DNA from: a virus
Lineage: Duplodnaviria; Heunggongvirae; Uroviricota; Caudoviricetes
Strand: one strand, 5' to 3'
Virus record (IMG/VR): IMGVR_UViG_2585427776_000003
DNA length: 8,206 nt
The position numbers were made by a program, and so were the translations under genes. Under the pieces are notes generated by a model. That model had not been told where the DNA came from, searched no databases, and saw only the letters and a program-made list of their open reading frames with translations. Positions within the stretch are counted from its first letter, which is position 1; each line of letters opens with the position of its first letter. This document shows positions 2,237 to 6,960 of this stretch, piece by piece.

Positions 2237-2620
2237 ATGCGTGATATTCAGATGGTTCTTGAGCGTTGGGGAGCGTGGGCGGCTAATAATCATGAAGATG
2301 TGACCTGGTCGTCCATTGCCGCCGGTTTTAAGGGATTAATTACTTCAAAAGTAAAATCTCGCCCGCAATGTTGTGACGATGACGCGATGATTATTTGCGG
2401 GTGCATGGCCCGTCTGAAAAAGAACAACAGCGATTTGCACGATTTATTAGTAGATTATTATGTAGTCGGTATGACATTCATGTCACTGGCAGGTAAGCAT
2501 TGCTGCTCTGATGGTTATATCGGGAAAAGGTTACAGAAGGCTGAGGGCATAATTGAAGGGATGTTAATGGCATTAGATATCCGGTTAGAGATGGATATCG
2601 TTGTTAATAACTCTAATTAA
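2237..2620 (+). CDS. quuD: late-gene antiterminator Q-like protein (127 aa)
   Basis: ATG at 2237 with GGAG at 2226-2229 (7-nt spacing). Product [22 protein letters not shown]... has a Cys-rich segment ([16 protein letters not shown]...HCCSDG) and sits at the Q position immediately upstream of the late region. The track ORF starts at an upstream TTG (2222). Confidence 0.85.
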
Positions 2621-2653: not shown

Positions 2654-2671
2654 GGGGCGTTGCAACGCCCC
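2654..2671. repeat. perfect 18-bp palindrome GGGGCGTTGCAACGCCCC; followed on the minus strand by a U-rich tract (candidate leftward intrinsic terminator or protein-binding site)
   Basis: Read directly: the sequence equals its own reverse complement. The minus-strand RNA would be hairpin + AUUUUUAAUAAUUUUU; the plus-strand RNA has no U-tract after it. Confidence 0.6.
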
Positions 2672-2808: not shown

Positions 2809-3891
2809 TTAGAACTGGTAAACCATACCTACAGCAACGATATCATCGGTAGCAACGCCAGATGCTTTCGTGAAATCGCTCTTATCAATCAGGTTGATTT
2901 TGTAATCAACAAAAGTGGACATATTTTTGTTGAAGTAATAGGTTGCACCTACATCAATATATTCAACCAGGTCCTGATCACCCCACGCACCCAAGTCTTT
3001 TCCTTTAGATTGCAGGTAAGCAACGGACGGACGCAGACCGAAGTCGAACTGATATTGTGCAACTACTTCGAAGTTTTGTGCTTTGTTGGCAATATGGTTA
3101 TTACCAAAAACAGTCATGTTCTGGGTTTCAGAATAGGTGGTAGCCAGATAGATGTTGTTCGCATCATATTTCAGACCAGCTGCCCATACTTCAGCATTTT
3201 GACCAGATGCATTCAGGCTGTTGTTACCGTAGATAACCTGATTATTAGTGCGGTCAGATTTAGCATAGGTTGCACCTACACCGAATCCTTCATACTCATA
3301 AGTAGTGGAGAAACCGAAACCATCACCATTAGCTTCAGTTACGTCAGTGCGGTCATTTTTACCCTGATACTGAGCAGCAAAGTTCAGACCATCAACCAGA
3401 CCAAAGAAGTCGTTGTTACGATAAGTTGCAACACCAGTGGTGCGACCAGTCATGAACACATCTGTTTGGGTCCAGGTATCGCCACCGAATTCTGGCAGAA
3501 CGTCAGTCCACGCACCGATGTCATATGCTACACCGTAGTTACGGCCGTAATCGATTGAGCCGTAGTCCCCGAATTTCAGGCCTGCAAATGCAAGACGGGT
3601 TTTGTCTTTGGAGGAGCCTTGAGATTCAGCGCGGTTGCCTTTGAATTCATATTCCCACTGACCGAAACCAGTCAGTTGATCGTTGATTTGGGTTTCACCT
3701 TTGAAGCCAAGACGGGCATAAGTAGTATCACCATCATCTGCATCATTAGAGGAGAAGTAGTGCTTGGCATTAACTTTCCCATATAGATCCAGCTTGTTAC
3801 TGTCTTTATTATAAATTTCAGCTGCCTGAGCAGACATCGCCATCAGTACTGATGCAGCTACAGCAGAAATTGCCACTGTTAATTTTTTCAT
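2809..3891 (-). CDS. nmpC: OmpC/OmpF/PhoE-family general porin (NmpC/OmpD-like), apparently intact
   Basis: Signal peptide [23 protein letters not shown], then mature N-terminus [17 protein letters not shown]. Aromatic/Gly-rich beta-barrel pattern and C-terminus ...GMVYQF with the terminal Phe typical of OMP barrels. Start taken at ATG 3891 (complement); the track ORF to 3951 adds 20 unlikely residues. Confidence 0.93.
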
Positions 3892-4478
3892 CGTGAGCCC
3901 TTTTTTTGAACTATTATTAAAAAATGATGTCACTGCGCGATAAATATTCATCTAATCAATGTGATTATTTCAAGATGTAAGTTTTAGTTTCTCATTTAAT
4001 TTGTGAAGTAGATCTCTATTTTTATCTGAACTTTTTCTATCGAAACCTATTTGTGGCTCTTATTTGAACAAAAGTAAACCTATTAGCTAATTTATATTAA
4101 TAGTTGTTATTTATGGAGGCTCTATAATTCGGCAGTTTAATTTAAATCAACTAAAAATAACGCCTGAAATTATTTATTGGTTATTTGTTGAGGTTTTCTT
4201 ATGTATTTGTGGTGGTGTTTTGAACACTCGGTAGCATTCTCATAAATATCATTCAGTGGTTTACGTACGTAAAAAATTGGTTATGCTGTTAAGAGTGGTT
4301 ACTTCGTCACACAGCTTAAACCCGCCGTCGAGCTGGTTTTTCCATTTTCTGAGTCTCGATATTAGCTGATAACTCAATACCTGAGTTATTCACTGACTCC
4401 GAGTCTGTTACGTTTCTGCTTTTTTGCGATACGTTGTATTCCCTCAATTTACACCCGCTTTGTCTGCGAGGTGGGGTT
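3892..4478. promoter_or_regulatory. AT-rich intergenic region (~590 bp) upstream of nmpC on the minus strand and upstream of the lysis cassette on the plus strand; promoter(s) not resolved
   Basis: Visibly AT-rich with many A/T runs (3900-4260 especially) and no convincing ORF. The minus strand contains GGTTTACTTTTGTTCAAATAAG (plus-strand complement around 4059-4080), which resembles OmpR-box half-sites of porin promoters. Confidence 0.4.
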
Positions 4479-4694
4479 ATGAAATCCATGGATAAGTTAA
4501 CAACGGGTGTCGCCTATGGCACCTCAGCAGGTAGTGCCGGTTACTGGTTTTTACAGCTGCTCGATAAAGTCACGCCCTCACAGTGGGCAGCAATAGGTGT
4601 GCTGGGTAGCCTGGTATTTGGCCTGCTGACGTACCTGACAAACCTTTATTTCAAGATTAAAGAAGATAAGCGCAAGGCTGCGAGAGGTGAATAA
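4479..4694 (+). CDS. essD: class II holin of the phage-21 S21 pinholin type, dual-start (antiholin from Met1, holin from Met4)
   Basis: ATG AAA TCC ATG GAT gives MKSMDK. Two hydrophobic segments ([18 protein letters not shown] and [18 protein letters not shown]) and a basic C-tail [11 protein letters not shown]. The track ORF from 4434 adds an upstream in-frame ATG. Confidence 0.9.
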
Positions 4695-5191
4695 TGCCTC
4701 CATCATTACGAAAAGCCGTTGCTGCTGCTATTGGTGGCGGAGCAATTGCTATAGCATCAGTGTTAATCACTGGCCCAAGTGGTAACGATGGTCTGGAAGG
4801 TGTCAGCTACATACCATACAAAGATATTGTTGGTGTATGGACTGTATGTCACGGGCATACAGGAAAAGACATCATGCTCGGTAAAACGTATACCAAAGCA
4901 GAATGCAAAGCCCTCCTGAATAAAGACCTTGCCACGGTCGCCAGACAAATTAACCCGTACATAAAAGTTGATATACCGGAAACAACGCGCGGCGCTCTTT
5001 ACTCGTTCGTTTACAACGTGGGCGCTGGCAATTTCAGAACATCGACGCTTCTTCGCAAAATAAACCAGGGCGATATCAAAGGCGCATGTGATCAGCTACG
5101 TCGCTGGACATATGCTGGCGGTAAGCAATGGAAAGGTCTCATGACTCGTCGTGAGATTGAGCGTGAAATCTGTTTGTGGGGTCAGCAATGA
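4694..5191 (+). CDS. rrrD: SAR endolysin (T4-lysozyme-fold muramidase, phage 21 R21 / P1 Lyz type)
   Basis: ATG at 4694 overlaps the essD stop (TAATG). N-terminal Gly/Ala-rich weakly hydrophobic SAR segment [20 protein letters not shown], followed by the catalytic triad positions E35, D44, T50 (GLEG...KDIVGVWTV). Confidence 0.93.
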
Positions 5192-5649
5192 ACAGAGTAA
5201 CCGCGATTATCTCCGCTCTGGTTATCTGCATCATCGTCTGCCTGTCATGGGCTGTTAATCATTACCGTGATAACGCCATTACCTACAAAGCCCAGCGCGA
5301 CAAAAATGCCAGAGAACTGAAGCTGGCGAACGCGGCAATTACTGACATGCAGATGCGCCAGCGTGATGTTGCTGCACTGGATGAAAAATACACGAAGGAG
5401 TTAGCTAATGCGAAAGCTGAAAATGATGCTCTGCGTGATGATGTTGCCGCTGGTCGTCGTCGGTTGCACATCAAAGCAGTCTGTCAGTCAGTGCGTGAAG
5501 CCACCACCGCCTCCGGCGTGGATAATGCAGCCTCCCCCCGACTGGCAGACACCGCTGAACGGGATTATTTCACCCTCAGAGAGAGGCTGATCACTATGCA
5601 AAAACAACTGGAAGGAACCCAGAAGTATATTAATGAGCAGTGCAGATAG
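5188..5649 (+). CDS. rzpD: Rz inner-membrane spanin (i-spanin)
   Basis: ATG at 5188 overlaps the rrrD stop (ATGA). N-terminal TM segment [18 protein letters not shown], then a coiled-coil-like, charge-rich periplasmic domain ending ...INEQCR. Confidence 0.9.
5408..5590 (+). CDS. rzoD: Rz1 outer-membrane lipoprotein spanin (o-spanin), embedded in the +1 frame of Rz
   Basis: Strong SD AAGGAG 7 nt upstream of ATG 5408. Lipoprotein signal [20 protein letters not shown] with lipobox VVGC, and a Pro-rich mature part ([15 protein letters not shown]). Lies wholly inside rzpD. Confidence 0.85.
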
Positions 5650-5680: not shown

Positions 5681-5974
5681 TTATTGTGAGCAATACACAC
5701 GCGCTTCCAGCGGAGTATAAATGCCTAAAGTAATAAAACCGAGCAATCCATTTACGAATGTTTGCTGGGTTTCTGTTTTAACAACATTTTCTGCGCCGCC
5801 ACAAATTTTGGCTGCATCGACAGTTTTCTTCTGCCCAATTCCAGAAACGAAGAAATGATGGGTGATGGTTTCCTTTGGTGCTACTGCTGCCGGTTTGTTT
5901 TGAACAGTAAACGTCTGTTGAGCACATCCTGTAATAAGCAGGGCCAGCGCAGTAGCGAGTAGCATTTTTTTCAT
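5681..5974 (-). CDS. borD: Bor/Iss-family outer-membrane lipoprotein
   Basis: Product MKKMLLATALALLITGCAQQTF... has a lipoprotein signal with lipobox LITGC. 97 aa, opposite strand immediately after Rz, as for lambda bor. Confidence 0.9.
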   Translation of the reverse strand: MKKMLLATALALLITGCAQQTFTVQNKPAAVAPKETITHHFFVSGIGQKKTVDAAKICGGAENVVKTETQQTFVNGLLGFITLGIYTPLEARVYCSQ

Positions 5975-6107
5975 GGTGTTATTCCCGATGCTTTTTGAAG
6001 TTCGCAGAATCGTATGTGTAGAAAATTAAACAAACCCTAAACAATGAGTTGAAATTTCATATTGTTAATATTTATTAATGTATGTCAGGTGCGATGAATC
6101 GTCATTG

Positions 6108-6172
6108 TATTCCCGGATTAACTATGTCCACAGCCCTGACGGGGAACTTCTCTGCGGGAGTGTCCGGGAATA
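6108..6172. repeat. 10-bp inverted repeat TATTCCCGGA ... TCCGGGAATA separated by 45 bp, in the borD-ybcV intergenic region
   Basis: Read directly: 6108-6117 and 6163-6172 are exact reverse complements. The spacer is GC-rich with CCC/GGG runs (CAGCCCTGACGGGGAAC...GCGGGAG). Confidence 0.5.
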
Positions 6173-6264
6173 ATTAAAAACGATGCACACAGGGTTTAGC
6201 GCGTACACGTATTGCATTATGCCAACGCCCCGGTGCTGACACGGAAGAAACCGGACGTTATGAT

Positions 6265-6675
6265 TTAGCGTGGAAAGATTTGTGTAGTGTTCTGAATGCT
6301 CTCAGTAAATAGTAATGAATTATCAAAGGTATAGTAATATCTTTTATGTTCATGGATATTTGTAACCCATCGGAAAACTCCTGCTTTAGCAAGATTTTCC
6401 CTGTATTGCTGAAATGTGATTTCTCTTGATTTCAACCTATCATAGGACGTTTCTATAAGATGCGTGTTTCTTGAGAATTTAACATTTACAACCTTTTTAA
6501 GTCCTTTTATTAACACGGTGTTATCGTTTTCTAACACGATGTGAATATTATCTGTGGCTAGATAGTAAATATAATGTGAGACGTTGTGACGTTTTAGTTC
6601 AGAATAAAACAATTCACAGTTTAAATCTTTTCGCACTTGATCGAATATTTCTTTAAAAATGGCAACCTGAGCCAT
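6265..6675 (-). CDS. ybcV: YbcV-like protein (DUF1398), 136 aa; function unknown
   Basis: Open frame with the best RBS (GGAAGG, 8-nt spacing) ahead of ATG at 6675 ([13 protein letters not shown]...). In-frame upstream alternative starts at 6717 (ATG) and 6798 (GTG) lack an SD. Codon usage is visibly AT-rich compared with neighbouring phage core genes. Confidence 0.8.
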
Positions 6676-6960
6676 TGGTAAAACCTTCCATGTGATACGA
6701 GGGCGCGTAGTTTGCATTATCGTTTTTATCGTTTCAATCTGGTCTGACCTCTTTGTGTTTTGTTGATGATTTATGTCAAATATTAGGAATGTTTTCACTT
6801 AATAGTATTGGTTGCGTAACAAAGTGCGGTCCTGCTGGCATTCTGGAGGGAAATACAACCGACAGATGTATGTAAGGCCAACGTGCTCAAATCTTCATAC
6901 AGAAAGATTTGAAGTAATATTTTAACCGCTAGATGAAGAGCAAGCGCATGGAGCGACAAA

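Follow-up and report, generated by a model that had tools for sequence, protein, structure and literature searches.

Back-to-back control modules between the porin and holin genes of a DLP12/PA-2-type lambdoid prophage: a porin promoter and a putative homologue of the Stx-phage late promoter

Among the Stx-type phages, the late promoter pR' of the Sakai prophage Sp5 has a start determined by dRNA-seq, and its transcript is cut by RNase E at +173 in GU/AUU and gives a 258-nt product (PMC7547250, Sy et al.). For the K-12 prophage DLP12, the segment described as 'Q, late promoter and lysis' sustains phage 434B (PMC9119081), which shows that this segment works as a late-gene switch. The promoter of the porin gene nmpC has already been described: its K-12 start is a G by 5' RACE in a 2024 study, with CRP activating at two operators and OmpR, IHF and MprA repressing (PMC11677980).

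We analysed a stretch of 8,206 nucleotides of caudoviricete DNA (IMG/VR record IMGVR_UViG_2585427776_000003), called the window here. Judged by its genes, it is the late region of a DLP12/PA-2-type lambdoid prophage, with the gene order quuD, nmpC (minus strand), essD, rrrD, rzpD:

70-759, an IS3-type transposase fragment
846-1202, a ybcN-like gene
1326-1655, ybcO
1652-2014, rusA
2011-2151, ylcG
2237-2620, plus strand, quuD, a Q antiterminator of 127 aa (Pfam PF06530, E 3.5e-53)
2809-3891, minus strand, the porin gene nmpC/lc (Pfam Porin_1, E 3e-153; annotated as porin/OmpD in SE11, ev099 and PA-2)
4479-4694, plus strand, essD, an S21-type holin (Pfam PF04971)
4694-5191, plus strand, rrrD
5176-5649, plus strand, rzpD
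5681-5974, minus strand, bor/iss

The region of interest is the whole gap from the nmpC/lc start codon (CAT at 3889-3891, minus strand) to the essD ATG at 4479, that is, 3892-4478. At 587 bp it is the longest gene-free stretch of the window, the remaining gaps all being shorter than 300 bp, in agreement with a first-pass annotation of this DNA, made from the letters alone, that had described a non-coding gap of about 590 bp between porin and holin. The same annotation called the region AT-rich, which holds for its left ~365 bp and fails for the remainder. GC content is 0.337 over 3892-4478 and 0.460 elsewhere in the window; only 3892-4255 has low GC (0.28-0.30, and 0.275 across 3961-4255), and 4256-4478, at 0.43, is like the phage genes. 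The composition changes where the late-promoter block (see below) begins, at ~4256-4260. No credible ORF lies in 3892-4478. A 57-aa minus-strand ORF at 4316-4489 was rejected, a 16-bp indel shifting its frame in 32 of 78 related loci, as were the small ORFs, including those annotated in ev099, which show no other sign of coding.

The region or a close relative was matched in 3168 of 5426 complete E. coli genomes, and its identity is 98.3% to phage ev099, 93.5% to PA-2 and 89.6% to 434B, which carries K-12 DLP12 DNA. Variation was assessed over 56 distinct haplotypes, up to 11% divergent. The published ChIP and TSS data for the homologous locus come from K-12, a member of another haplotype lineage than the window, and are given in U00096.2 coordinates (offset to U00096.3, 777). 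TSS mapping, which had been suggested as a check, could in this way be drawn from related strains, with K-12 starts at the equivalents of 3936 (minus), 3924 (plus) and 4294 (plus).

We read the region as two independent control modules set back to back by the insertion of a moron, the porin gene, and consider this reading quite likely. The region combines elements of known kinds, and its parts are otherwise textbook. We found no earlier explicit assignment of the late module to this position; by alignment, it is a plain homologue of the Stx-phage pR' cassette. Its features are as follows:

4260-4265, plus strand, pR' -35 hexamer TTTACG, followed by a 16-bp spacer (aligned to the annotated late promoter of VT2-Sakai and 24B)
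4263-4270, palindrome ACGTACGT followed by an A-tract, a candidate Q-binding element
4282-4287, plus strand, pR' -10 hexamer TATGCT (same alignment)
4290-4310, plus strand, TSS A4294 with the conserved initial transcribed block TAAGAGTGGTTACTTCGTCAC (homologues in Cappable-seq and dRNA-seq)
4318-4341, plus strand, putative pR'-proximal intrinsic terminator AAACCCGC / GCtGGTTT with T-run, +25 to +48
4312-4335, plus strand, alternative hairpin CAGCUU/GAGCUG, possible only with T4334 (MFE fold)
4342-4478, plus strand, late leader to the holin, with a hairpin at 4368-4390 and a 16-bp indel site at 4415-4430
4454-4475, plus strand, hairpin predicted to sequester the Shine-Dalgarno sequence of essD (fold; 4452-4471 invariant)

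About 300 Stx-type phages match the window only at 4259-4341, with 76-77% identity. In VT2-Sakai and 24B the matching stretch is annotated as 'putative late promoter', 'Q-utilization' and 'rho-independent terminator', with its beginning still within the last part of the Q gene. The late-operon signals that the first-pass annotation had expected upstream of the holin are found in this pR'-qut-terminator block at 4260-4341. A prophage, PPyecE_EH1910, matches at 94.5% over 4287-4341, its block starting 38 bp past a 126-aa Q gene. Among the 56 haplotypes, 4272-4311 has no variable column, and TAAGAGTGGTTACTTCGTCAC occurs once in the window and in none of 200 shuffles. One prophage carries an IS1 placed exactly between the -35 and -10 of pR'.

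The transcript start has been mapped in related strains. A K-12 Cappable-seq TSS, U00096.2 576452(+), falls on the base homologous to A4294 with an RRS of 1.7 (cut-off 1.5). The set holds 16,359 clustered TSS over 9.3 Mb of strand, giving an exact chance coincidence of about 0.002, and its strand and coordinates were checked on the thrL, talB and dnaK starts, all of which were reproduced. The three Sakai figures given above fit only a start at the A where TAAGA meets GTGG in VT2-Sakai, and the homologue of this nucleotide is again A4294. By way of K-12 and Sakai, the block thus has a constitutive sigma70 promoter with a mapped start. Promoter prediction, also suggested earlier, did not recover it: a generic sigma70 scan of the region flags no promoter, and both pR' hexamers score 4/6. 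Because these hexamers are weak, such a scan is uninformative here.

K-12 has another plus-strand start beside the porin gene. The Cappable-seq TSS U00096.2 576081(+), with an RRS of 90, comparable to dnaK P1 and P2, corresponds to A3924, 7 nt past TATTAT. This start converges on the nmpC start G3936(-), 12 bp away, and a strong rightward promoter at A3924 would converge on the nmpC promoter. A sigmaE-type promoter, essDp, has been published for nearly the same position; we rebuilt its coordinates from the primers used and the stated span of '-121 to +650':

3908-3940, plus strand, rightward promoter with -10 TATTAT at 3912-3917 and TSS A3924 (K-12 Cappable-seq TSS 576081(+))
3908 to ~3940, plus strand, reconstructed essDp with -35 GAACTA at 3908-3913, -10 TCACT at 3930-3934 and +1 at ~3940 (PMC7918800)

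It is therefore conceivable that the lysis genes are driven by this upstream promoter (~3924-3940, essDp) and that 4260-4341 is an inactive pR' relic, which we consider unlikely. The K-12 signal at the 3924 equivalent is about 50 times stronger than that at the 4294 equivalent (RRS 90 versus 1.7), and a reporter fragment over the whole region, with +1 at ~3940, has been used in the literature as 'the DLP12 promoter region'. Q(DLP12) and RpoE are also said to raise essDp transcription, reportedly in work by Rueggeberg from 2013 and 2015. However, the reporter fragments also include 4260-4341, so these data do not discriminate between essDp and pR'. A relic would not be expected to keep 40 bp invariant while its flanks diverge by ~10%, and the block has a TSS mapped at the homologous nucleotide. 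Moreover, Q proteins of quuD's family act solely at their own promoter-proximal site, and the sole copy 3' of quuD is the 4260-4341 block. Transcripts from 3924 would have to pass through 370 nt of untranslated DNA bound by H-NS, followed by the terminator.

We thus continue to read 4260-4341 as the late promoter block. Its first transcribed nucleotides have previously been interpreted in another way: PA-2 record J02580 (1986) labels the inverted repeat GTGGTTACTTCGTCAC (4295-4310) a CRP binding site, and as a second such site it could make the porin or the lysis genes subject to catabolite control. Its right half is a perfect TCACA, but the left half, TGGTT, matches at 2 of 5 positions, and a CRP pattern search with 2 mismatches misses the repeat. 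It lies ~360 bp from the nmpC TSS, and phages lacking a porin gene also conserve its block at +1 to +17 of pR'. We find a CRP function highly improbable and take the 1986 'CRP site' to be where the late transcript begins. The -10-like pause hexamer in this block (TACTTC or TTACTT) is a poor match; the 933W version, TACATT followed by GCC, is better.

Downstream of this block, the first-pass annotation had noticed a weak hairpin with a T-run. The hairpin is present and real (CAGCT at 4312-4316, AGCTG at 4331-4335, T-run at 4337-4341), and what looked like weakness is a lineage-specific allele of a normally strong terminator. T4334, a G in K-12, introduces a C.U mismatch into the terminator stem. 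A terminator scan flags the K-12 allele (AAACCCGC/GCGGGTTT) and passes over the window allele, and the fold of a 52-nt transcript gives -13.9 kcal/mol with the G allele and -8.4 with the window allele (z = -0.07), the MFE fold of the latter including the alternative CAGCUU/GAGCUG stem. As a feature, the hairpin with T-run is far above chance: it stands at the homologous place in 44 of 52 distinct family members, with 14 stem variants, and in 12 of 2080 shuffled controls (0.6%).

Of the 78 loci, 28 have T4334, among them the SE11 prophage and the phages PA-2 and ev099, both viable; K-12 and 434B are among the remaining 50. This T is no private mutation: in complete linkage, it distinguishes one of two deep lineages from the other. 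Compensation between T4334 and T4374 was considered and rejected, the two sites being in complete linkage in these lineages. The Sakai RNA has its 3' end at a second terminator at +258 (PMC7547250), so the first hairpin is at most partial there. The terminator scan finds no second terminator in DLP12-type leaders, and the K-12 RNA 3'-end data (PMC7815308 supplements) hold no entry for the region's coordinates. Because of the C.U mismatch, the terminator block is probably leakier in the lineage of PA-2, ev099, SE11 and the window.

That the ~48-nt pR' transcript (4294-4341) is itself a regulatory small RNA like StxS of the Stx phages is hardly credible: its 48 nt are homologous to the first 48 nt of the Stx-phage counterpart, which is processed to an Hfq-binding sRNA (PMC7547250), but functional StxS is the 3' 74 nt of the 258-nt RNA, a part without counterpart here, where homology ends at the T-run, and an Rfam search of the whole window with E up to 1 gave no match. 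A terminated RNA of 48 nt may be under-sampled by Cappable-seq, in which the pR' TSS signal is weak.

Beyond the terminator, the leader folds at -52 kcal/mol (z = -3.06 against shuffles) and reaches essD, which is the first late gene; the lysis and later genes on the plus strand 3' of pR' comprise essD, rrrD and rzpD (4479-5649). essD has dual starts, Met1 at 4479 and Met4 at 4488, and antiholin and holin starts are annotated in 434B. A structure covering the Shine-Dalgarno sequence, comparable to that predicted before essD, has been described for S21.

The putative regulator of pR' is encoded upstream of it, also on the plus strand. QuuD shares 78% identity with the VT2-Sakai Q (933W type) and matches the solved Q21 structure weakly (32 bits). 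Between quuD and pR' lie 1.67 kb filled by nmpC and its promoter, a separation that results from insertion of the porin moron between the two. A pR' directly after quuD (2621-2808) was rejected; that stretch lacks the late motif and contains the terminator of nmpC on the minus strand. We scanned IMG/VR for the initial-transcribed motif and found 120 loci. Every locus with a detected Q (~100) has a PF06530 Q upstream on the same strand, and the rest are mostly truncated contigs. Q-to-site gaps range from 21 to 2468 bp: 21 bp in the 933W type, 42-61 bp, or 0.6-2.5 kb, with 1672-1691 bp where nmpC is present. The window's promoter does not directly follow Q, and many relatives are also gapped by 0.6-2.5 kb; contiguity of Q and promoter is not universal in the Q21/Q933W class. 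On homology, quuD is predicted to be the cognate Q of the late promoter at 4260-4294.

In 68 distinct family sequences the -10 keeps the form TAnnnT, and a palindrome of 8-10 bp followed by an A- or T-tract stands between -35 and -10. The palindrome varies by Q clade: it is ACGTACGT or ACGATCGT with QuuD/Q933W, GCGGTCCGC or GCGTACGC with PPyecE-like Qs, and TCGTTACGA or TGGAATTCCA with more distant Qs. Since Q21 and lambda Q bind within the promoter, the palindrome at 4263-4270 is a candidate Q-binding element.

The right module (module B, 4260-4478, of normal GC) may then work as a plus-strand late-gene switch built on a weak constitutive sigma70 pR' with its TSS at A4294. Without Q, transcripts would stop at the +25 to +48 terminator. 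QuuD, made 1.67 kb upstream, may bind the palindrome between -35 and -10 and load onto RNA polymerase paused in the +1 to +17 block, a candidate for a sigma70-dependent pause, and the modified polymerase would pass the terminator into essD-rrrD-rzpD and later genes. Translation of the holin would be further limited by the hairpin over its Shine-Dalgarno sequence.

A more far-reaching proposal, which we offer tentatively and regard as rather doubtful, is that in the PA-2/SE11 lineage the sole terminator is crippled and Q-independent read-through sets basal holin and endolysin, while the Q-to-site junction serves as a cargo slot. If so, read-through from both pR' and the 3924 promoter would set the basal level of holin and endolysin, and silencing would rest with H-NS, the weak promoter and the Shine-Dalgarno hairpin, not with termination. 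The junction between Q and its site would keep antisense, AT-rich, H-NS-coated morons (the porin here; elsewhere candidate defence genes) off the late transcript.

The left module (module A, 3892 to ~4255, AT-rich) serves the minus strand as an ompD-homologous, sigma70-type porin promoter starting at G3936. The K-12 literature ascribes to it activation by cAMP-CRP from a class-I-like site (4002-4017), repression by OmpR over the -35 and a coat of H-NS. Its features are as follows:

3936 to 3892, minus strand, nmpC 5' UTR, 45 nt from TSS G3936 (5' RACE and OmpR ChIP-exo table)
3949 to 3944, minus strand, nmpC -10 GAATAT (ompD promoter alignment)
3973 to 3968, minus strand, nmpC -35 TTGAAA, with an 18-bp spacer to the -10 (ompD promoter alignment)
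3949-4009, equivalent of the K-12 OmpR ChIP-exo peak (PMC5438342 supplementary table)
4002-4017, CRP site TGTGAagtagaTCTCT, centred at ~-73.5 of the nmpC promoter (annotation of PA-2 record J02580)
3972-4324, equivalent of the H-NS-bound K-12 'promoter island' 576129_354 (PMC3661553 Table 1)

The minus-strand porin promoter that the first-pass annotation had placed in the gap is confirmed by the K-12 5' RACE start (PMC11677980) and by alignment to ompD. The proposed comparison with porin upstream regions was productive: ompD promoters from 17 species (Salmonella arizonae, Citrobacter, Enterobacter and others) can be aligned to 3892-4020 read on the minus strand. The TSS implied by the OmpR ChIP-exo table, U00096.2 576093, converts to window position 3936 (G opposite C3936) and agrees with both the ompD alignment and the RACE result, and 3932-3951 is invariant in the 56 haplotypes. 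With its -35 and CRP half-site in ompD register and its TSS mapped, the element has the make-up of a CRP-activated ompD/nmpC promoter. The CRP site at 4002-4017 is kept in position with the TCACA half-site of ompD promoters; taken by itself, its match to the CRP pattern is no better than chance.

Published ChIP data at the homologous locus, another suggested check, show both OmpR and H-NS on the K-12 homologue (PMC5438342, PMC3661553). The OmpR ChIP-exo peak in MG1655 lies at U00096.2 576106-576166, in repression mode at a distance of 43 to the TSS (PMC5438342), so that OmpR as a repressor spans -13 to -73 relative to the nmpC TSS. An OmpR-like 20-mer, CTTACATCTTGAAATAATCA (minus strand, 3981 to 3962), lies inside the equivalent span and overlaps the -35; it is not statistically significant. 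Tandem 20-bp OmpR sites of the ompF/ompC type, abutting the -35 (~-100 to -40), are not found at nmpC. The OmpR box that the first-pass annotation had proposed did not hold up. Its segment, GGTTTACTTTTGTTCAAATAAG, is present on the minus strand at 4059-4080, -123 to -144 from the nmpC TSS, outside the equivalent of the ChIP-exo peak (3949-4009); it reads GATTTATTTTTATTCAGCCAAG in K-12 and PA-2, a degenerate form, and varies more than any other part of the region does, and an OmpR consensus searched with up to 3 mismatches finds no site anywhere in the window. We judge the resemblance to be due to chance. The box shares its first half with the ompF F1 site, which is a lead and not a test.

The idea of H-NS targeting fared better, as the K-12 homologue is H-NS-bound in published ChIP-chip: its promoter island is one of 78 and is bound in all three studies compared (column H, 'A'; PMC3661553). 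The module has the composition of such an island (GC 0.28), with occupancy documented for the K-12 homologue. Site prediction, suggested for H-NS as well, gave a high-affinity motif count at chance. The H-NS, CRP and OmpR scans were all at or below chance, and the regulator claims get no support from motif matching alone.

Taken together, the first-pass annotation was right about the porin promoter and the late signals and mistaken about the extent of the AT-richness and the OmpR box; the complete pR'-qut-terminator module had gone unrecognised. The putative late promoter at 4260-4294 indicates where the DLP12/PA-2 lysis cassette switches on. This may conflict with the published essDp assignment and bears on studies of DLP12 lysis genes in vesicle production and biofilm.

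Compared with described systems, the porin module shares with ompD of Salmonella, Citrobacter and Enterobacter the -35 TTGAAA, the AAACTTA element, an equidistant CRP half-site TCACA and the overall order. The -10 region and 5' UTR differ (45 nt in nmpC, longer in ompD), similarity is absent upstream of the CRP site, and the nmpC element is phage-borne and faces a late promoter. The essDp of DLP12 shares the intergenic region and the downstream operon and lies within 16 nt of the strong K-12 TSS. It lies ~355-370 bp before the pR' homologue, and dependence on sigmaE has been proposed for it. The other Q933W-type phages examined lack a counterpart of essDp.

The PA-2 lc region (J02580, Blasband et al. 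1986) and K-12 DLP12 nmpC-essD hold the same element between the same flanking genes. K-12 belongs to the other haplotype lineage, with G4334 (intact terminator), a 16-bp leader deletion and IS5 in nmpC. The PA-2 record reads the initial transcribed block of pR' (+1 to +21) as a CRP site, and the 434B record annotates only ribosome-binding sites in the region. Phages 21 and 82 work by the logic proposed here, with a Q-binding element placed within the promoter, pausing close to the promoter and a terminator beyond it. In phage 82 a G+C triplet follows the -10-like element, as in the window, although the hexamer is poor here. The element bound by Q21 consists of two 8-bp subsites in direct repeat, whereas the candidate in the window is a palindrome, and Q21 is distant (32 bits).

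The late module of the window resembles that of the Stx phages 933W and Sp5 (VT2-Sakai) in the TTTACG-16 bp-TATnnT geometry, the position of the palindrome, the homologous start nucleotide, a near-identical +1 to +20 and the hairpin with T-run at ~+25 to +48, and the Q proteins are 78% identical. In the Stx phages Q and its site overlap, whereas here they are 1.67 kb apart. The Stx-phage cassette also continues into the StxS segment and a second terminator at +258, both absent from the window, where the stem is mismatched and the late leader reaches an S21-type holin after 185 nt.

In all 80 related IMG/VR loci retrieved (L008-L087), the Q antiterminator protein is identical to that of the window, and the intergenic region between the porin gene nmpC and the holin gene essD falls into two linked lineages, with identity ranging from 89% to 99%. 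This combination indicates that recombination occurred between Q and the late promoter. Two of these loci, L086 and L087, are DLP12-type through the terminator of the late promoter pR' and Stx-phage-type thereafter, which places a putative recombination break right at the terminator.

One prophage (L042) carries a 768-bp IS1 at 6046-6813 of its locus, flanked by an 8-bp target duplication, AAAATTGG; the insertion point corresponds to window positions 4273-4280 and splits pR' precisely between its -35/palindrome and its -10. The IS1 should disconnect the late promoter in this prophage. The late leader, between terminator and holin, contains the 16-bp segment TCTGCTTTTTTGCGAT (4415-4430), with a short direct repeat flanking it. 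K-12 is among the 32 of 78 related loci that lack this segment, and without it the leader loses its only other T-run.

At the porin end of the intergenic region (3912-3949), the minus-strand start of nmpC, G3936, faces a plus-strand start, A3924, at a distance of 12 bp, so that the two converge; A3924 is strong in K-12 Cappable-seq (RRS 90). Open complexes at the two starts should be mutually exclusive, which suggests that porin expression and rightward transcription interfere with each other at the promoter level. Beyond the nmpC stop codon lies one further set of features:

2621-2808, minus-strand features in the 188-bp gap that separates the stop codon of nmpC from quuD (the Q gene): three hairpins and a terminator

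The terminator is strong (2671..2654, minus strand; GGGGCGTTGCAACGCCCC followed by a T-run). We take the nmpC/lc 3' UTR in this gap to be the ipeX RNA, which reduces OmpC and OmpF. IpeX is named among the regulators of ompC in the SdsR paper.

Two features lie at the left end of the window:

70-759, IS3-family transposase ORF with an rve domain (E 4.5e-28)
846-1202, shortened ybcN/NinB-like ORF, abutting the transposase ORF

It is therefore likely that, upstream of the late region, the prophage copy in the window is defective.

Other phages of the same Q family have a gap of 0.6-2.5 kb between Q and pR' (GC 0.31-0.42) that holds one or two genes, as seen at loci L092, L094, L096, L107, L108, L126, L131, L135, L139 and L196. 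Of 13 gap classes examined, 12 carry their genes on the minus strand; the exception is L096, with a plus-strand ORF. Candidate defence families were matched by two of ten tested: PDC-S20 (KAP NTPase-like; E 1e-177) and PDC-M68A (HNH). Across this family of phages, the junction between Q and pR' looks like a cargo slot.
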